Below, piece after piece: positions 4,324 through 57,000 of a DNA stretch of 64,000 nt (positions are counted from its first letter, which is position 1; each line of letters starts with the position of its first letter). Source of the DNA: a bacterium (GTDB taxonomy: Bacteria > Patescibacteriota > Minisyncoccia > UBA6257 > 2-01-FULL-56-20); contig JAJXZE010000002.1 in the NCBI GenBank assembly GCA_021780195.1, positions 20,220 to 84,219 of the forward strand, given 5' to 3'. Made by a program: the position numbers and the translations under genes. The notes under the pieces are model-generated. The model did not search any database, was not told the DNA's origin, and saw nothing but the letters and a program-made list of their open reading frames with translations.

Positions 4324-4353
4324 TTGACTAACAGGCATCGTAAGTGGCATAAT
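4324..4353 (+). promoter_or_regulatory. sigma70-like promoter (TTGACT, 18 nt spacer, CATAAT) upstream of the secreted protein gene
   Basis: The hexamers are read directly from the sequence. Confidence 0.4.
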
Positions 4354-4406
4354 ATGGGTGTTCTTTAAAAATTCACGTGCCGCCTCCGGGCGGCGAGGAG
4401 AGAATC

Positions 4407-5024
4407 ATGAAAAAGTTTTTTGTTTTTGTTTTTGTCGTCGCTTTTTGTCTCCTCCTGCCGGAGGAGTTGAAGGCGCAGGGGGTCGCCTTCCAGTGGGGAG
4501 GCCCCAAAACGACGCTCTTGATCAACAACAGCGTCAACCGCCCCGCCCTGGTGACCGTCGGGCAGCAGGTATGGCCGCTGTATCCGGGACAAACTCTCTC
4601 TCTAAAATACGGATATTGGGAGAGGCAAAACCAGGCGCTCATCGTCGACGTCTGCGAGCAACTCACTTTCTCGCGGTCGGCGATTGCGCCGCCAGCATGG
4701 GCAACCGACCCCAACGTCGTCGGGGCCGCCGCAATTCCGGCGGGCTATAACAACCCCGATAAAAAAATCCTTGATGAGGCGGTAGGGCGGCTCAGGGCCG
4801 CCATCAAAAACCGCCTCGGCGGGCGAAATATGCGTCGCGAACTCGACGCGTGGGCGAAGGAGGTCAAAAAGCATGGCCTCGTTCGCTTCTCCCCCGTTTG
4901 CGAGGGCCGCTCCACCGTTGCACAGGTAACGGACGTCCAGCAGTGGGGCTGGAACCGCTCCATCGTCGTCCAGATCGCAAAGGACGCATGGAGCAAGAGC
5001 TATGCCCTCCGCACTCTTCAGTAG
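4407..5024 (+). CDS. secreted hypothetical protein with signal peptide
   Basis: N-terminus MKKFFVFVFVVAFCLLLP. GAGGAG ribosome-binding site upstream. Confidence 0.6.
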   Translation: MKKFFVFVFVVAFCLLLPEELKAQGVAFQWGGPKTTLLINNSVNRPALVTVGQQVWPLYPGQTLSLKYGYWERQNQALIVDVCEQLTFSRSAIAPPAWATDPNVVGAAAIPAGYNNPDKKILDEAVGRLRAAIKNRLGGRNMRRELDAWAKEVKKHGLVRFSPVCEGRSTVAQVTDVQQWGWNRSIVVQIAKDAWSKSYALRTLQ

Positions 5025-5253
5025 CCTTCCCCGTGCCGCAGACCTTGCGCGCACGGGATTTTTTTATTTCAAATCTCCCTCCATCACCCCCCCGCGCCCG
5101 CTACGCAGAAAAATTCAAGGAACAGGGGCGCAGGAAGGCGCTTCTTCTTTCACGGACATTAAAGGGAGCCCATGGCCGAGAAAGAAGAAGGGCCTTCCTG
5201 CGCCTTGGGCTTTGTTTGCTCCGCGGGCGCGGGAGTATAATGCCAGTGTCATC

Positions 5254-5820
5254 ATGTCCGGGCACTCACATTGGGCGGGAATCAAGCACAAAAAGGAAAT
5301 CACCGACCAGAAGCGCGGGAAGATATTCTCGAAGCTTCTCGCGGCAATCTCGGCGGCGGCAAAAACCGAGCCGAACCCCGACTTCAACCCGCGCCTCCGC
5401 ACGGCGGTCCAGAAAGCGAGAGAGGCGAGCGTGCCGCAGGAAAATATCGAGCGCGCGATAAAGCGCGCCGCGGAAACGGGCGCGGCGCTCGAAGAGCTCG
5501 TCTTTGAGGCATATGGCCCGGGCGGCATCGCGCTCCTCATGACGGCGATCAGCGACAACCGGAACCGCACGGTCCAGGAGGTGAAACTCGCCCTCAAAGA
5601 ACGCGGCGGCAAGTGGGCCGAGGAAGGCAGCGTCCGCTGGGCCTTCGAATTCGCGCCCTCGGAGGACGGGAGCGGCATCGCGTGGCGCGCAAAATTCCCG
5701 CAGGACGTCGCACCGGACGATGCCGCAAAACTTGCGGCACTCATTGAGGCGCTTGAGGAGGTAAATGATGTGCAGGCGGTCATCACGAACGCGGCGGAGG
5801 CCGCGGAAGAAACCCAATGA
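5254..5820 (+). CDS. yebC: YebC/PmpR family DNA-binding transcriptional regulator
   Basis: MSGHSHWAGIKHKK...GPGG family signature. TATAAT at 5235-5240. Confidence 0.9.
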   Translation: MSGHSHWAGIKHKKEITDQKRGKIFSKLLAAISAAAKTEPNPDFNPRLRTAVQKAREASVPQENIERAIKRAAETGAALEELVFEAYGPGGIALLMTAISDNRNRTVQEVKLALKERGGKWAEEGSVRWAFEFAPSEDGSGIAWRAKFPQDVAPDDAAKLAALIEALEEVNDVQAVITNAAEAAEETQ

Positions 5821-39679: not shown

Positions 39680-39754
39680 GGGCATGTAGCTCAATGGCAG
39701 AGCAGACGTCTTATACACGTCCGGTTCCAGGTTCGAGTCCTGGCATGCCCACCA
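39680..39754 (+). tRNA. tRNA with anticodon UAU (tRNA-Ile2-like, would decode AUA), CCA encoded
   Basis: Acceptor GGGCATG/CATGCCC, D arm GCTC/GAGC, anticodon stem GACGT/ACGTC with loop CTTATAC, and T arm CCAGG-TTCGAGT-CCTGG. Confidence 0.75.
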
Positions 39755-50356: not shown

Positions 50357-51084
50357 GATGACAGAGGGGGTGGTTCCGGAGGGTGCGCGGCTGGCAGGGA
50401 GGGGAATGGATTGAAGGGATCTATTCCTCTCCCCGAGAGCAAGAGGAGAGGCCTAAGGAGATCCGGGGAAGAGATCTTCATCAGCTCTTTGTAAAACGAC
50501 GGTCGCTCGCGGATATCAGTCTCGAGGAGAGAGTTATCTCGCAGGGCGATTCAGTCAAGCATTCGTCGCGGCGCGTGTCATCGCTTCAAAAGAGCGAGAG
50601 CGGTAGCGGGGCCAGGGAGTCGACGACTCTGCCTCCAATGCCGCGCTGATCAAATCGATCCACAGCGCCACCACGTTTCTTTTTGTGAGATACGTTGCCG
50701 GCGAAACGGTCCAACCCGCCGTTTCTCGGCAAAAATCTCCCCGAAAGAGGAGAGTGATATGGTTCCCTTAGTAAGGAGATCGACTGGAGAGCAAGCTCGG
50801 GTCCGGTTGGTCTCCAGAAACCTCCTTACTAACTCGATCGCAATCTGCGAAAACCGAGGAGAGAGCAGATTGTTAGAGGAGAGAGTAAGGAAGTACCTTG
50901 AAAATTGAATAGCCAAAGTAGTGCTTATAGCGATTATACGTTCGCGGATTATTACACGGGAGCGTCCGAGCTATGGCATTTTGACTTTGAAGTTCCTCCC
51001 GAGTTTGGTTGTCAACTGAGGTTCTGATTTTTGGTGCTTCAGTTGGCAATCAAACTCAAATACGAAACGAAAGGAGGGAGTCAA
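50357..51084 (+). ncRNA. ~0.7-kb ORF-poor, highly structured transcribed leader / candidate large ncRNA with five GAGGAGAG repeats and one 49-aa sORF (50759-50908)
   Basis: Nested hairpins, for example 50768-50833 (TTAGTAAGGAG...CTCCTTACTAA enclosing CTGGAGA...TCTCCAG). GAGGAGAG at 50443, 50524, 50748, 50847, 50870. No ORF over 60 aa except overlapping antisense artefacts. Confidence 0.45.
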
Positions 51085-51555
51085 ATGAACTATTTGTTGG
51101 GGTCGGGTGAGGCGGTCATTGATCGTTTCAACTCGCACGTTCACGACGGAGTGGCGCGGCTCCTACCCGCGGCGCTGCTTCGAGTTCAGTCACAGGGTAG
51201 GAAGTTCCTCATCGAGGAAGTTGACTTTGGTCAACCAGTCGGTGAGACGATCTGCGTTCCAACCGGGCCAGGGGACGAGATCGTATACGCAATTCGGCCC
51301 AAGAGATTCGGGCACTCGCGGTTCGTCAAAAATCGCAAGCCCGAGCCATGTGGTGCGGTGACGATCATTCTCAAAAGGGATGAATTTGATCCGTACTATG
51401 TCCTAATTACGGCCTTCGTAGGCCATAAACCTGAGCCCGAGCCATGGGATCGCAATTCCAATGGTTTGAGTCGGGACTTCTGGAGTTCTCACGCCCTCAT
51501 CTGGGGGTGCGAGGAAGTCATGCACAACACAGTAACCACGGAATGTCCGTGGTAA
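51085..51555 (+). CDS. hypothetical protein (156 aa), island gene 1
   Basis: Strong ribosome-binding site AAAGGAGGG 7 nt upstream. No recognisable domain. Confidence 0.6.
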   Translation: MNYLLGSGEAVIDRFNSHVHDGVARLLPAALLRVQSQGRKFLIEEVDFGQPVGETICVPTGPGDEIVYAIRPKRFGHSRFVKNRKPEPCGAVTIILKRDEFDPYYVLITAFVGHKPEPEPWDRNSNGLSRDFWSSHALIWGCEEVMHNTVTTECPW

Positions 51556-51583: not shown

Positions 51584-51874
51584 ATGAAAATCAAGAGGTT
51601 GTTTTTGGCGCTGTGCGCCAAGAGGTTGGTTGTCGACATCATCACCGCTGACAACAGAGCGTTTCAGTTGAGCGGTGACCGACGGTTCGAGGGGATGTAT
51701 GAGCGGCTATTCCATGCCGACTCTCACCCCACTCGCAGAAACGTTGGAGAAGGTGAGATGCAGTGGGCTTTCGACCAGGCCAGAGAAATCCGGCTTTGGA
51801 TGGGCCCCACGGAGTATCGCACGATCACAACAACTGAGCTCGAATCCGAGCTCACGCCATTCCCGGTTCGATAG
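51584..51874 (+). CDS. hypothetical protein (96 aa), island gene 2
   Basis: Ribosome-binding site GAAAGGAGAAAC. Confidence 0.55.
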   Translation: MKIKRLFLALCAKRLVVDIITADNRAFQLSGDRRFEGMYERLFHADSHPTRRNVGEGEMQWAFDQAREIRLWMGPTEYRTITTTELESELTPFPVR

Positions 51875-51888
51875 AAAAGGAGGAGACG

Positions 51889-52338
51889 ATGAGTCACATC
51901 AGAAAGGAGACCGTGCGTGGATTCGATACCGTCCACCCGGTTGTTCTGCAAGAAGGTATCAAGGTGGCCTGTCAACTTCTCTCGCTTCAGGGCCTGAAGG
52001 TGACTGATCATGTCTTTGATTGGAGTGGCCATAAGGTCACCGAGTACAACGGCATGAATGTTATCTGCGGCTTGGACGCACAGGGGTCGGCCTCGTCCCA
52101 CAAGTTTGCGGGACTGGGGCTCGCAGTCGACCAGAAGGGCAAGCTCGCGATTGTCGGAGATTTTTATTACTCCGAGCAAGAGCAGCGAGCCCAGGAACTC
52201 AAGAAGATGATCGAAACAGTTCTTGGCGGAGCCTGCTACTTTGCGGCACGGGCGATGATCGCCACGGCCAAGGGGCAGCGGACTCAGATCAAGATCAACC
52301 AAGAAACCCGCCAGCTTCAGCTGGTGGTGCAGATGTGA
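51889..52338 (+). CDS. hypothetical protein (149 aa), island gene 3
   Basis: Ribosome-binding site AAAGGAGGAG. Confidence 0.55.
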   Translation: MSHIRKETVRGFDTVHPVVLQEGIKVACQLLSLQGLKVTDHVFDWSGHKVTEYNGMNVICGLDAQGSASSHKFAGLGLAVDQKGKLAIVGDFYYSEQEQRAQELKKMIETVLGGACYFAARAMIATAKGQRTQIKINQETRQLQLVVQM

Positions 52339-52357
52339 GATGAGAAAGGAGGACGTC

Positions 52358-52573
52358 ATGGCAAGAGAAGTCATAACGATCGGCGGAGACGGAGGCGTCG
52401 GCTCTGAAATGTTCGGGTTCAAAGGCAAGAGCTGCCTCAAAGCGGCGGCTGAGATTGCCGAAGAGCTCAAGCGGCTCGGAGTGGTTGCCGACATCGGCGG
52501 AATCAGCATGAAAGAGGATGCCGAGGTCGTGACCGAGACGCAGCAAGCGGCAATGAAGGTCGAAAGGGGATGA
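52358..52573 (+). CDS. small hypothetical protein (71 aa) immediately upstream of the radical SAM gene
   Basis: Ribosome-binding site GAAAGGAGGAC. Gly-rich N-terminus ITIGGDGGVGSEMFGFKGKSC. Confidence 0.45.
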   Translation: MAREVITIGGDGGVGSEMFGFKGKSCLKAAAEIAEELKRLGVVADIGGISMKEDAEVVTETQQAAMKVERG

Positions 52574-53205
52574 AAGTTATGGTTATGCCCCGCGTAAACC
52601 TTCACGACTTCGTCCCCCGGTCTCGTGCAAACGGGCCGGGGGAGCGAGCGGTGGTTTGGGTGCAGGGTTGCCCTCGGCGTTGTCCGGGGTGTTTCAATCC
52701 CGAAACCTTACCATTCGTTACCAAGAATTGGGTAACCGTTGATGATCTTGAGAGCCGAATCTTGGCTCAAAACAACATTGACGGCGTCACCTTTTCTGGT
52801 GGCGAACCGTTCGCACATGCACAGGCACTTGCCGAGTTGGCGAAAAAGCTGCGCAAGTATGGATTGACGGTGGTGTGTTACACCGGCTACACGCTCAAGC
52901 AACTTAAGGCCGGAAATCGCGAGGACTGGAATGCTCTTCTTTCAGAAGTAGACCTTCTGATTGACGGGCCATTCATCCAAGAGCAGCGGTGCCATGAACC
53001 ATATCGCGGCTCGGCAAACCAAATTCTTCACCTTCTTACCGATCGCATCCGATTGGAGGAAGTTCATGGGCAAAGCCAGACAGCAGAGTTCACACTCGGC
53101 GCTGGCGGAGACATCCAGCAAACTGGATTCCCTGAACTCCCCGACATGGATGCGGTCATGGGAGAAATCTCAGGGATCCTCAAACAGACAGGAGGATCGA
53201 AATGA
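52570..53205 (+). CDS. NrdG-like radical SAM glycyl-radical activating enzyme (4Fe-4S, CxxxCxxC)
   Basis: NGPGERAVVWVQGCPRRCPGCFNPE, GVTFSGGEPF, VVCYTGYTLKQL and LIDGPF...YRGSANQILHLL align with NrdG family hallmarks. Confidence 0.8.
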   Translation: MKVMVMPRVNLHDFVPRSRANGPGERAVVWVQGCPRRCPGCFNPETLPFVTKNWVTVDDLESRILAQNNIDGVTFSGGEPFAHAQALAELAKKLRKYGLTVVCYTGYTLKQLKAGNREDWNALLSEVDLLIDGPFIQEQRCHEPYRGSANQILHLLTDRIRLEEVHGQSQTAEFTLGAGGDIQQTGFPELPDMDAVMGEISGILKQTGGSK

Positions 53206-55010
53206 AAGATACGAAGAATTGTGCCGTAACGGCACACAGTTGGTTTGAGTCTTTTGCTCGTGCCTACGCGGCCGAGCTCGGGTACGTGTTTCTTATCTCC
53301 GGCAACATCGCAGATTTATTCCCCTTGGGGAGCGAGTTCGTGACCTTGCGCCAGTTCTGGGCAAGGCAGTTGGATGGCAGAGACATTGTGGTGTTCTGGG
53401 ATAAGTCGGCGGGGTTCGCCTTTGCTGACGAAATCCTCGGCACCAAACCGGCCGAAGGGCAACTCCCGATGAGGGAGAAGTTCAAGGCCGCAGTCGGACT
53501 GAATCAGCAGCAAGGTAATGGCGGCAGCAATGCCTCTAACTTGCTGGCTGGCTTGGCTGGATTGGGCGGCGGCAACAACGGCGCGCTTCCCACTGATCCT
53601 GAGCAAGCTTTCCAGCTTCTGGAAAAATTGCTCTCACAGGGCAAGCCAGAAGATCGGAAGGCGGCGGTAGTCGTGGAGTACATCGAAAGTGTTATCCCCG
53701 AAAACGACTACGGGTCAGTTCCGGCAGTAACGCTCCAACGGTGGGCGTCTCTGGACAGCCCGCTCAAGGGTACCGGCAACCCGGTTATCCTGATCGAGCG
53801 GAATCCAGAACGGGCCTCTAGTGTAGTGAAGCATGACGATTCGTCGGTAGTGCGGATCCACATTCCTCGTCCGAACAAAGAGGAGTTCGGAACATTCATC
53901 CGTCACAGCCTGAAGGTCAACGGCGTTAAGCTCGCCGAAGGCCTGACGGTGGACGTGGCGGCCAACCTGTCAGCCGGGCTACGTTGCAAGGACTTTGACG
54001 ACTTTGTCATGAAGTCGCTCGAGTCCGGCGACCCAATCAACGACACCTTTATTTGGCAGAAAAAGGTGGAGTTGATTGAGAAGCAGTCCGGCGGGGTCCT
54101 GCAGGTGGTAAGACCCAAGCATGGGTTCGAATCCATCGGCGGGCTGGAGCACGTCAAGAGCGCCCTACGGGTGCAGATTGACAAGCTTCGCAGTGGTTCC
54201 AGAACCACTGATAAGGGTTGGATTCTGATGGGGCCTCCGGGAACGGGGAAAACCATCATCGCCGAGGCGCTGGCGAAAGAGTCGGGTGTCAATTTCGTGA
54301 TGCTCGGCAACGTCCTCTCCAAGTATGTGGGTGACTCGGAGAGAAACATGAATCTCGCTATGGAAATTGCCCGAGCCATGGCGCCCACAATCATCTTCGT
54401 TGACGAAGCCGCTGAGGCAATCGGAAACGGAGAGGGCTACAACGGGGATAGCGGCGTCAGCAATCGTGTAAGGGGGAAACTCCAGAACGTGATGGGTGAC
54501 GACTCTGCCCGGGGCCAGCTGTTCTTTATGCTGGCAACGAACTATCCCAATCGTCTGGCACCGGCGATTCTGCGTGAGGGAAGGATGGACAAGCGGGTGC
54601 CACTCTTGGTTCCTGACAGCACCGGGAGAAATGAGATTCTCAAAGCGCTTTGCCTAAAGTATGGCATTGCGTCCGAGGGAATCGACTTTTCACCTGCCCT
54701 TGCCAGTACGGAAGGGTGGACAGGTGCTGAGCTCGAGGCGCTTTTACTCCGAGCGAAGCAATTTGCAGAGGAGGAGGAAGTGCCGGTCGAGACCCGTCAT
54801 TTCGATGAAGCGGTAAAGGATTACATCCCGAGCCGCGACCAGCAGGCGTTCGACCTGATGACCGCGTTGGCCATCAGGTACACGAACTCCAGACGGCTTC
54901 TGCCCGAGGCCTATCGGTCTGCGAATGGAGAAATTCAGAAGCGGATCGATGAGCTCGAGCCTCAGGTGGCCGAGCGCGAAGCAAGGCGCCGGGGCGGGCT
55001 GAAGCTCTAG
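53202..55010 (+). CDS. AAA+ ATPase (single classical AAA domain, ~280-aa N-terminal unknown domain), C-terminus RRRGGLKL
   Basis: Walker [15 protein letters not shown], Walker B IIFVDEA, second region of homology ATNYPNRLAPAILREGRMD. Confidence 0.85.
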   Translation: MKDTKNCAVTAHSWFESFARAYAAELGYVFLISGNIADLFPLGSEFVTLRQFWARQLDGRDIVVFWDKSAGFAFADEILGTKPAEGQLPMREKFKAAVGLNQQQGNGGSNASNLLAGLAGLGGGNNGALPTDPEQAFQLLEKLLSQGKPEDRKAAVVVEYIESVIPENDYGSVPAVTLQRWASLDSPLKGTGNPVILIERNPERASSVVKHDDSSVVRIHIPRPNKEEFGTFIRHSLKVNGVKLAEGLTVDVAANLSAGLRCKDFDDFVMKSLESGDPINDTFIWQKKVELIEKQSGGVLQVVRPKHGFESIGGLEHVKSALRVQIDKLRSGSRTTDKGWILMGPPGTGKTIIAEALAKESGVNFVMLGNVLSKYVGDSERNMNLAMEIARAMAPTIIFVDEAAEAIGNGEGYNGDSGVSNRVRGKLQNVMGDDSARGQLFFMLATNYPNRLAPAILREGRMDKRVPLLVPDSTGRNEILKALCLKYGIASEGIDFSPALASTEGWTGAELEALLLRAKQFAEEEEVPVETRHFDEAVKDYIPSRDQQAFDLMTALAIRYTNSRRLLPEAYRSANGEIQKRIDELEPQVAEREARRRGGLKL

Positions 55011-55868
55011 TCCGAAACACCAACACAGAAACGAAAAGAATGGAGGTGATTCCAATGTAGTTCTTATGGCGAGAGCCACGGAGAACCCGAATCTTTCCGC
55101 GGGATGGAGTGTGCGGGGAAGATCGGAGGCGGTCTTCGGTAGGGCTGCTTCTTAAAACATGACCCGGCGATGCATCAGGCCGAAGTCTGATGTAGGTTCC
55201 AGCGGCAGATGTTTGTCGGCTATCAGGGATATCCGGCAGACAGTTGGAACAAAGGGGTTTGTACATTTGCGGGTTCATTGGTGTGCGAGCTTCTCTCCCT
55301 GAAATGGAGAAACGAACCAAAAGCGAAGTTAACCTTCAACCGGCGGTTGGCAATCATCCGTCGAGCGTTAACCCCAAGTGGAATTAGCGGTGCTTAATAA
55401 AGGCCACAGGCCTAATGAGCCGCTAAATCCAGCAAGGTCGCAGAGTTCCCTTCGGGGGATAAATAAATTGCATAAGCCGAGAAATCGGAATGCGGATCGC
55501 GCTTGACTTAAAGCGCGAGAAGCGAGTGGCCAGTCAATCGGCCGTCCGATTTGTCCAGTTGCGAGCAACATTGCAGTTGGACTAGGCGAAGATTGAACGC
55601 GCTCATCCGCGAAACTTCAAATTCGGCCTAGGGTTCGATGAGGGGTTCTATAAAATTCTTGACTTTGGCCAAGTCTTGGCGGCACTTGCTTTGCCGTAAC
55701 CTCGGGCTAATCGCAAGTTAGCTCGAGGAAAGCAAGAAGGGTTTAGGGTTTACAGTCCGGGCGAGTTGACGCACTCAACTCGCCCCTTCTTCCGAACTCA
55801 TCATCATGGTGATGATGAGTTCGGAGAGAGGGTTCATTGACAACCAAATACGAAAGGAGGAAAGCAGA
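55011..55868 (+). ncRNA. ~0.85-kb ORF-free structured region (candidate large ncRNA or processed intercistronic RNA)
   Basis: Numerous hairpins and long-range pairings, for example 55759-55785 (10-bp stem), 55792-55824 (15-bp perfect stem), and TGGAATTAGCGGTGC...GAGCCGCTAAATCCA. No coding potential. Confidence 0.45.
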
Positions 55869-56621
55869 ATGGACAAGGTCCAAATCTACCCGCAAGGGCT
55901 CGGAGAGTACGAGCGGACACTTGGTCTGCGCTGGTCGGTATCATATTACTTGATGCCAGAAGCGCATACGTGCCAAGTGGTCTGCGACGGTCGCGAGCGA
56001 AAGTGTGAGATTTGGATCAACGGTACCACGTACCGAAATCCAGAACTCATGTTCGCTGATGTGATTCATGAGCTCTGCCATTGTAGTTTGGCAGAACGAA
56101 TCGATCCGGCTTTCTCGACGGTTTTCTTTTCCAACAAATGGAATGAAATCAGTCGAGAAGATGAGGCTCGGTTCGGTCAGCTTGCTCGCATGCTCTACTA
56201 CGCGTGGAGTCATGTAGACATTTGGGTGAACGATCTTCGTTTCGCCCACTGGCCAGAGCTCACAAACGAGGATCACAATACTTTTGCACAAGGGATGGTA
56301 GCAATCGTCCAAGCGCAGGAGTGGCGTGTTCTGCAGTCACCCGAAACAGTTCTTGGTCTGGCTCAATACCAGGCTGAGAGGAATCGGCATCATGTCAATA
56401 CGCCTGATCTGTTTGCAGCTTTAGAGGCAAACGGAGTGGGCGTGGATGACCAAATCCGAAAATTGGCTATCTACTTTGAGTCTTTGCCTCGATTGAAGTT
56501 CAATCAGAGAAAGGACTTGAAGGCACTCGAGCGGTCAGTTCAGGACGCAGCGAAGATGCTGAACTTTCCTATCACCCCCCGGCTTGTCTGGGAGGAACGA
56601 TGGGTATGGAGTCTCGACTGA
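55869..56621 (+). CDS. hypothetical protein with HExxH motif (VIHELCHCSL), putative metallopeptidase
   Basis: Ribosome-binding site GAAAGGAGGAAAGCAGA. HELCH motif. The called ORF (55806) extends upstream into the hairpins. Confidence 0.55.
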   Translation: MDKVQIYPQGLGEYERTLGLRWSVSYYLMPEAHTCQVVCDGRERKCEIWINGTTYRNPELMFADVIHELCHCSLAERIDPAFSTVFFSNKWNEISREDEARFGQLARMLYYAWSHVDIWVNDLRFAHWPELTNEDHNTFAQGMVAIVQAQEWRVLQSPETVLGLAQYQAERNRHHVNTPDLFAALEANGVGVDDQIRKLAIYFESLPRLKFNQRKDLKALERSVQDAAKMLNFPITPRLVWEERWVWSLD

Positions 56622-56658
56622 GACCCAAAGCAAAAAGCAAAAGGAAAGGAGAAATAAA

Positions 56659-57000
56659 ATGAGAAACGGCAATTTCCTGTATCAGCTGAGTTTGCAGGAG
56701 GCTTTCATTGTTCACCGCGGCGTAAGCCAAGGCGGCAAGAAGCTGAATGCAGATCAGCGGAGGATTTTCTGGCAGAGAAATAGCCAGAAGGTCAGCGGTG
56801 TCGAGATTGGTGCCGGCAAGGTGCTGGTCTCACTGGTTGGGCTCAGAGTTCTTCGCGAGAAGAATCTCGTGATCGTTTCCAACCCCGGGAAACCGAGGAT
56901 ATGGACGATCAAGCGGATCATGGAATCCGCTGAGAGGAATCAAGTTATTCCAGAACTGACGCAGGGATCGTCTCAGCGTCGAGGTGGACTGAAGCTGTAG
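56659..57000 (+). CDS. small protein (113 aa) ending in RRGGLKL
   Basis: Ribosome-binding site GGAAAGGAGAAATAAA. The C-terminal heptapeptide is identical to that of the AAA+ ATPase, with different codons. Confidence 0.55.
   Translation: MRNGNFLYQLSLQEAFIVHRGVSQGGKKLNADQRRIFWQRNSQKVSGVEIGAGKVLVSLVGLRVLREKNLVIVSNPGKPRIWTIKRIMESAERNQVIPELTQGSSQRRGGLKL

Follow-up and report, generated by a model that had tools for sequence, protein, structure and literature searches.

A shared C-terminal peptide on a Cdc48-like AAA+ ATPase and unrelated operon partners in Patescibacteria, and its probable role as a docking motif

Two proteins encoded in a 64,000-nucleotide stretch of a patescibacterial genome (GenBank assembly GCA_021780195.1, contig JAJXZE010000002.1, positions 20,220 to 84,219; hereafter the window, in whose coordinates features are given unless another locus is named) end in the identical heptapeptide RRGGLKL: a AAA+ ATPase of 602 amino acids (53202-55010, plus strand) and a protein of 113 amino acids, p113 (56659-57000, plus strand). 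This tail is a real, selected and co-evolving short linear motif at the C-terminus, and at least four unrelated protein families of this operon type carry it. It is probably a docking peptide, read from its free C-terminus and binding one common partner; both the docking role and the protein that receives the tail are things we infer. Features of this type are already known; what is new is this motif, together with the proteins that carry it and their setting.

The ATPase reading frame terminates in EREARRRGGLKL directly before its stop codon (55008-55010), the last residues being ARRRGGLKL, and that of p113 terminates in GSSQRRGGLKL (stop codon at 56998-57000). The tail is written cgc cgg ggc ggg ctg aag ctc in the ATPase gene (54987-55007, plus strand) and cgt cga ggt gga ctg aag ctg in the p113 gene (56977-56997, plus strand); five of the seven codons differ, every change is synonymous, and tail codons also vary widely between related loci. 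An origin of the twin tails by duplication of DNA is ruled out by these differences, which point to selection on the peptide and not on the DNA. The first-pass annotation of this stretch had described the two identical endings on unrelated proteins, counted the differing codons and excluded a recent DNA duplication, and was accurate in all of this. The ATG at 56659 is preceded by a good ribosome-binding site, and homologues of p113 begin MRNGNF.

The probability of an identical heptamer in two given open reading frames is about 4e-9 at the local amino-acid composition, and when the 64-kb window is translated in all six frames, the string GGLKL appears just twice, once in each tail. Similarity between the ATPase and p113 is confined to the last ~20 residues (blastp, E = 0.023). 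Related operons were taken from independent contigs, and 12 Patescibacteria loci were compared, designated here by L numbers; L162 and L163 are two contigs with the same AAA+ protein (P0028) and were counted as one distinct locus. Among 1,961 stop-to-stop segments from 12 related loci, the loose motif [RK]xGxxx[LFIMV]$ was matched 22 times against 5.6 expected, a 4-fold enrichment, and 18 of the 22 matches were the AAA+ protein or its small neighbours. Under a strict regular expression, the reading frames of the AAA+ protein and p113 were the sole matches among all stop-to-stop segments of the window, L001, L161, L162 and L163. A chance or low-complexity ending, which the first-pass annotation had kept in view as an objection, is ruled out by the heptamer probability together with these scans.

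The motif is widely kept in homologues of both proteins, and its absence from them, the other objection raised at that stage, was not what was found. Close relatives of the ATPase (70-96% identity) come from Patescibacteria/Paceibacterota metagenome bins; 25 of the 40 examined end exactly in RRGGLKL and 37 keep the looser form [RK]xGxxx[LFIMV]-COOH, with variants such as RRGNLEL, RRGKLSL, RNGNLIL, RRGGLPL and RRGYKRF. Among 23 close homologues of p113, the exact ending is present in 14 and the looser motif in 21. A profile search of 1.84 billion representatives added 31 distant members of the p113 family, about half of which have a variable linker followed by a tail (RRGNLKL, RSGGLKL, RRGLLQL, RKGGLQL, RKGNIKF, RRGRQML, RRGGLTL, RRGCLSL), the other half being short forms that end right after the folded domain. 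In both families the 15-20 residues ahead of the tail vary freely; in p113, column entropy is 0.26-1.2 bits over the last seven positions and 1.8-3.0 bits over the preceding 17. The glycine at -5 is the most conserved position of the tail (37/40 ATPases, 22/23 p113 proteins), and conservation extends to the hydrophobic residues at -3 and -1. The second glycine is freely exchanged for N, K, Y, R, L or C, so that there is no conserved GG. The resulting consensus is [R/K]-R-x-G-x-(L/I)-x-(L/F)-COOH, in short R-R-G-x-L-x-L at the extreme C-terminus.

The same pattern recurs across independent operons. In six more Patescibacteria operons, the AAA+ protein and a small neighbour both end in the form [R/K]-x-G-x-x-x-[L/F]-COOH, and in a seventh only the small protein does. 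The ends of the AAA+ protein and of its neighbour are, respectively, RRGGLKL and RRGGMKL in L001, RRGNLEL and RRGGLQL in L161, and RRGGLPL and RHGGLKL in L162. In L169 and L170, where the neighbour is p114, the pairs are RRRGYKRF with RRKGNIKF and RRKGNLPRF with RRQGNIKF, the last residue having changed from L to F jointly in both proteins. Three tailed proteins lie together in L167: the AAA+ protein (HRGGGRTL), an unrelated protein of 117 amino acids encoded directly 3' of it (p117, MRRGGFEL) and the p113 homologue p143 (LRRGRQML). L171 has no p113, and its AAA+ protein (TKRNGNLIL) shares the form TKRxGxLxL with an unrelated coiled-coil protein of 216 amino acids encoded upstream (p216, TKRSGRLKL). 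By blastp, p117 and p216 are unrelated to the other tail-bearing proteins. The AAA+ protein of L174 has no tail, and a tandem p113-like protein there ends in PRSGRRLL; L166 combines a deviant AAA+ end (GRRRSL) with a short-form p113 that has no tail, and in L168 neither the AAA+ protein nor any neighbour seen is tailed. Tails of one locus share on average 4.2 of seven residues, compared with 3.5 between loci (permutation P ~0.008; 0.046 with close relatives collapsed). Conservation, the two further unrelated carriers and this covariation within loci bear out the earlier proposals that the identity is held at the protein level and that it reflects a shared targeting, docking or processing signal.

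The setting of the tail on the ATPase was examined through Pfam, NCBIfam, AlphaFold2 and Foldseek. The protein belongs to the classical AAA clade, its best NCBIfam matches being Cdc48, PAN and FtsH, all far below their cut-offs. The AlphaFold2 model, built from an alignment of 83 sequences, has a predicted local distance difference test (pLDDT) score of 91 and contains two Rossmann-type domains, and p97/Cdc48 proteins are its best structural matches, with ~600 columns aligning to D1 and D2 (Foldseek, E ~1e-21). The fold of D1, the N-terminal half, is present with its Walker A motif lost ('SGNIAD'); D2 retains intact Walker A and B motifs, a KYVG pore loop and the arginine fingers R458 and R461. 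The protein is thus modelled as a tandem Cdc48/p97-like ATPase with a degenerate D1 and a predicted active D2. There is no Cdc48 N-domain, and against TIGR01243 the protein scores far below cut-off, making the ATPase a relative and not an orthologue of Cdc48. After D2 the model places a long helix (residues 575-596) followed by an unstructured tail (pLDDT 56), which is not docked in cis in the monomer.

A comparable architecture is predicted for p113, whose AlphaFold2 model comprises a compact alpha/beta domain (residues 5-95) and a disordered stretch (residues 97-113) made up of linker and tail. The linker is variable in length and sequence across the 23 close and 31 distant homologues. The fold matched no known fold and is not of the beta-grasp, ubiquitin-like type. 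The modelled build of p113, with its folded domain, disordered linker and tail, and the free tail that follows the ATPase helix would both fit a peptide made for docking.

On the docking reading, two kinds of protein would display the tail, each on a stalk that is flexible or extended. A hexameric Cdc48-like unfoldase would present six copies at its D2 face, and small accessory proteins, namely the p113 family or, in other lineages, the unrelated 117- or 216-residue protein, would present the same tail. Since all carriers share one plug, they would be expected to bind jointly to, or compete for, a single pocket of one shared partner, and the glycine fixed at -5 in nearly all tails argues for a pocket in which the terminal carboxylate is bound as well. 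Every tail-bearing locus has genes for the DUF1257-like protein, the DUF2997 protein, the radical SAM protein and the ATPase, and the receptor would most likely be one of these proteins, the AAA+ ring itself included. In L174 the accessory protein is tailed though the ATPase tail has been lost, which suggests that the receptor is independent of the ATPase tail.

Several observations weigh against this reading. The covariation rests on about three lineage events, and the tail is dispensable in some lineages, as seen in the tail-less ATPases of L168 and L174 and in the short forms that make up about half of the distant p113 family. Nothing in the operon can be recognised as a partner of proteasome-like or other ring shape. 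Nucleic acid is another possible ligand of a basic RRGG peptide, and an activase of a type that acts on glycine-containing peptides is encoded right beside the ATPase gene.

C-terminal docking peptides are familiar from the hydrophobic-Tyr-X (HbYX) tails, from the p97 tail with its PUB/PUL cofactors and from the XB tether of SspB. HbYX tails likewise occur on classical-clade AAA+ proteins and on non-ATPase cofactors (PAN, Rpt subunits, archaeal Cdc48, PA200/Blm10 and the Pba chaperones), and in these systems a C-terminal peptide with a free carboxylate inserts into the pockets of a partner ring. The hydrophobic-Tyr-X pattern is, however, absent here, where the ends are L-K-L, L-E-L, I-K-F or K-R-F; none of the 40 ATPase and 23+31 p113 sequences has a penultimate tyrosine, and no proteasome family is among the Pfam matches of the window operon and the 12 loci. 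In p97/VCP, as here, the extreme C-terminal peptide belongs to a tandem D1-D2 AAA+ protein and is a cofactor dock imitated by unrelated proteins; p97/VCP is eukaryotic, its peptide is DDLYG and not RRGGLKL, and no PUB/PUL domain is found here. SspB, which carries a C-terminal XB peptide for ClpX, resembles p113 in its folded domain, flexible linker and conserved C-terminal peptide. Its receptor on ClpX is the N-terminal zinc-binding domain, which this ATPase does not have, and the ATPases of SspB-type adaptor-tether systems are not known to bear the docking peptide themselves.

The nearest parallel is that of the mycobacterial AAA+ ATPase Mpa and the unrelated, ATP-independent activator Bpa, both of which end in GQYL and dock on the 20S proteasome (PMC4254994). 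Bpa was discovered through the four C-terminal residues of Mpa, which follow a poorly conserved stretch of 15-20 residues (PMC4254994). In both the Mpa/ARC and Bpa (PafE) system and the present one, a AAA+ ring ATPase and an unrelated small protein have an identical end after a variable linker, and that end is conserved in orthologues. The systems differ in that the present motif is R-R-G-x-L-x-L with no penultimate tyrosine, the accessory family is another one, and no 20S or other ring partner is recognisable. They differ further in the radical SAM activase, DUF1257 and DUF2997 genes of the present operon and in the presence of up to three tailed proteins per locus. The tail would therefore work like the GQYL/HbYX, p97-PUB and SspB peptides and is not a member of those families, because there is no penultimate tyrosine, no proteasome gene seen in the loci examined and no PUB domain.

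The remaining genes of the operon, all on the plus strand, are of uneven conservation. The protein of 211 amino acids encoded at 52570-53205 is assigned to the radical SAM activases of NrdG/PFL-AE type by its sequence: it matches Fer4_12 (1e-35), scores 107 bits against the NrdG model TIGR02491 (cut-off 126), aligns to PFL-AE (3c8f) and has the NGPGER loop and CxxxCxxC cluster of glycyl-radical activases conserved. Ahead of it, at 52340-52573, lies the gene of a DUF2997-like protein of 77 amino acids (Pfam PF11211, E = 8e-5, just below cut-off). A tblastn search detected this gene in 9 of the 12 Patescibacteria loci, and L168 has it in fused form; it is present in every locus where the contig reaches except L166, where none was called or detected, and clear DUF2997 proteins are encoded in L162 and L165. 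The preceding gene (51889-52338) encodes p149, a protein of 149 amino acids that starts MSHI and is taken as DUF1257-like from weak similarity, position and synteny. It is weakly similar (E = 7e-4) to an MSHI-starting reading frame of 127 amino acids at the DUF1257 position of the phage-like L164, its position is conserved in synteny, and L165 has a Pfam-confirmed DUF1257 at the same place. In L168 (2078-2701), the DUF1257-like and DUF2997-like proteins are fused in one reading frame of 207 amino acids adjoining the radical SAM gene, a fusion which suggests that the two act as a complex. Genes for DUF2997 and DUF1257 (ycf35) cluster with ferredoxin in cyanobacteria (PMC4284462).

Further upstream, p174 (51031-51555) matches phrog_23674 (E = 5e-21) and has homologues in L001, L161, L166, L167 and L170. 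This family has its own conserved extreme C-terminus, ending in [E/D]CPW in the window, L001, L161, L166 and L167. The small conserved protein p96 (51584-51874) has homologues in L001, L166, L167 and L169. On the other side, p436 (57056-58366), a cysteine-rich protein of 436 amino acids always encoded directly 3' of p113, had tblastn matches in L001, L161, L162, L169 and L170, and none in Pfam, PHROG or the PDB. Between the two tailed genes, as the first-pass annotation had noted, lies that of an HExxH protein (HELCH; 271 amino acids, 55806-56621), which matched no family or PDB entry; apart from the window it occurs in L162/L163 alone, hence in 2 of the 12 loci, marking it, from gene content, as an optional passenger outside the conserved gene set. 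Sequence searches of the PDB with p174, p436, the HExxH protein and DUF1257 gave no match. PADLOC returned generic matches only for the operon, to the AAA+ protein (IetA, TRIP13) and the radical SAM protein (pVip), and literature searches found no paper describing this operon. The term island, used in the first-pass annotation, is doubtful, as the operon lies in the same chromosomal context in other Patescibacteria, with a TrmB regulator and a large protein upstream.

The ATPase gene and the p113 module are separated by a non-coding gap of about 800 nucleotides (55011-55805), which is conserved in relatives. It contains a two-helix RNA motif (55383-55427, plus strand) with a conserved internal loop (UGCUUAAUAAA / UAAUGAG). 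Seven copies were found in six loci, the window and five related ones: L001 (8729-8773), L161 (12237-12282), L162 (3374-3418 and 4185-4230), L169 (4084-4129) and L170 (3916-3961). Compensatory changes were seen in 10 of 12 base pairs, and 96% of the cells were paired, compared with 70% in shuffles and 27-54% in slid controls, pairing figures that are somewhat inflated as the structure was derived from the same sequences. The covariance model R1 recovered these copies only, and the gap had no Rfam match. The motif could belong to a larger structured RNA, or it could act as a leader for the p113-p436 module.

Among the other explanations of the tail, we consider it unlikely that it is a C-terminal degron or tag recognised by the AAA+ unfoldase itself, the accessory proteins being substrates or tethered adaptors and the ATPase's own tail auto-regulating the ring. 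The adaptor-like build of p113, with its domain, flexible linker and short conserved C-terminal peptide, the intact pore loop and ATPase motifs of D2, and the retention of the accessory tail after loss of the ATPase tail in L174, which would fit the body of the ATPase as receptor, all favour such a tag. It agrees poorly with the presence of the peptide on the ATPase itself, for which we know of no parallel in adaptor-tether systems, with the lack of a separate N-terminal substrate-binding domain, the N-terminal half being a degenerate AAA domain, and with a monomer model in which the tail (pLDDT 56) does not dock in cis. Slightly less likely is that the tail glycine is the substrate of the adjacent activase, by abstraction of the C-alpha hydrogen to give a glycyl radical or a radical-initiated modification. 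PFL-AE accepts the 7-mer RVSGYAV, an R-x-small-G-hydrophobic peptide loosely like RRGGLKL. In both cases an activase gene adjoins proteins with a conserved Arg-x-x-Gly-hydrophobic peptide, and the best conserved tail position, the glycine at -5, would be the target. The activase gene is present in all 12 Patescibacteria loci and its stop codon overlaps the start of the ATPase gene, indicating translational coupling, and the operon has no recognisable glycyl-radical enzyme: no Gly_radical or PFL-like Pfam match was obtained, and no nrdD is present in the 64-kb window. The tails nevertheless do not fit RVxG[FYW]: arginine stands at -2/-1 from the glycine and not at -3, and the residue after the glycine is G, N, K or R and not aromatic. 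The glycine lies four residues from the C-terminus on a disordered tail and not inside a 10-stranded barrel, and a glycyl radical in that position would be unshielded. An activase would have no need of a glycine set at a constant distance from the chain end. Nor is the co-occurrence of tail and activase strict, as L168 has the radical SAM gene and no tail on any visible protein, the ATPase of L174 has no tail, and in the phage- or plasmid-like relative L164 the AAA+ end is tail-like though the locus lacks a radical SAM gene. Of the earlier suggestion that the tail is a substrate loop for this activase, the adjacent NrdG/PFL-AE-type enzyme stands, and the fit to the known loop and the co-occurrence do not. 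A portable radical-SAM-modified C-terminal tag (glycyl radical, cross-link or cleavage) on the unfoldase and its partners, possibly assembled with the gap RNA, is a little more doubtful still; if true, Patescibacteria would have post-translational tagging of a new kind.

Binding of the basic RRGG tail to nucleic acid, for example to the gap RNA, so that both proteins would assemble on one RNA, is suggested by the arginine- and glycine-rich composition of the tails and by the covarying motif in the conserved gap between the two genes of the window and five related loci. This is very unlikely, since the invariant hydrophobic positions -3 and -1 and the fixed C-terminal register are what a protein pocket typically requires, unlike RNA binding of the RGG type, both tails of L171 occur with neither gap nor RNA motif, and in L167 and L174 tailed proteins are present and the RNA motif was not detected. 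The idea favoured in the first-pass annotation, that the HExxH protein acts as a peptidase which removes LKL from a ubiquitin-like end to expose RGG for conjugation, has little left to recommend it and is barely credible. An RGG followed by a short extension does recall ubiquitin-like precursors, and in the window the HExxH gene lies between the two tailed genes. Yet p113 has no beta-grasp fold, the second glycine is not conserved, and conservation of the last residue and of -3 would be unexpected in a discarded pro-peptide. Neither E1, E2 nor JAB-type families appeared in Pfam and NCBIfam searches of nine operon proteins and the related loci, 10 of the 12 loci lack the HExxH gene, and a AAA+ protein of 602 amino acids is implausible as a ubiquitin-like modifier. 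The suggestion of a cargo-loading or secretion signal likewise found nothing to attach to, as no encapsulin (HK97-fold) or secretion-system gene is among the Pfam and PHROG matches of the operon.

Shared C-terminal plugs wire AAA+ machines and alternative caps or cofactors to a partner, and one such plug led to Bpa. If the tail is a docking peptide, it would mark the otherwise unannotatable p113, p117 and p216 as parts of one machine in Patescibacteria. At the core of that machine would be a Cdc48-like unfoldase, an orphan activase of glycyl-radical type, DUF1257/DUF2997 proteins, which are related to the ycf35 cluster of cyanobacteria and plastids, and a structured RNA. The biology of Patescibacteria is largely unknown, and the motif offers a concrete handle on the receptor and on the function of the operon. 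It may also reveal the role of an activase that has no recognisable glycyl-radical enzyme.

Outside these operons, the ATPase has distant relatives on DNA of phage- or plasmid-like character, where L165 has DUF1257 and DUF2997 alongside and no radical SAM gene. BLAST searches of phages and plasmids returned distant AAA+ relatives only, with no shared tails, and scans of viral contigs gave no relatives. Scanning metagenomes with the ATPase alignment yielded generic AAA proteins only, the patterns having fallen on Walker A. In the phage- or plasmid-like L164 and L165, a DUF3150 protein is encoded 3' of the AAA+ gene, and its end resembles that of the AAA+ protein loosely, in two pairs and without significance: VRSGVEL against REGHREL in L164 (9743-10768) and VRGMRAAV against RTVRALL in L165 (9780-11192).

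A genome scan gave two true relatives (L001 and L002) together with distant paralogues adjoining PspA-like genes. These paralogues (L007-L033, from Acidobacteriota and Myxococcota) have a different conserved end, VG[STGN]RR, and lie downstream of a PspA-like gene and of a gene whose product, OmpA-like by eye, ends in NRRTDIKV; their ends suggest that C-terminal tails are subfamily-specific across this AAA family. Within the window, ARAGORN placed a tRNA-Ile with anticodon UAU at 39680-39754 and also found tRNA-Gly(UCC) and tRNA-His(GUG). In L002, a Patescibacteria single-cell genome, the gene 3' of the AAA+ gene (4333-5628) encodes a DUF5122 beta-propeller protein ending in SSFDDDIPF, which is the C-terminal tail motif of bacterial SSB and another borrowed docking peptide at the same operon position.

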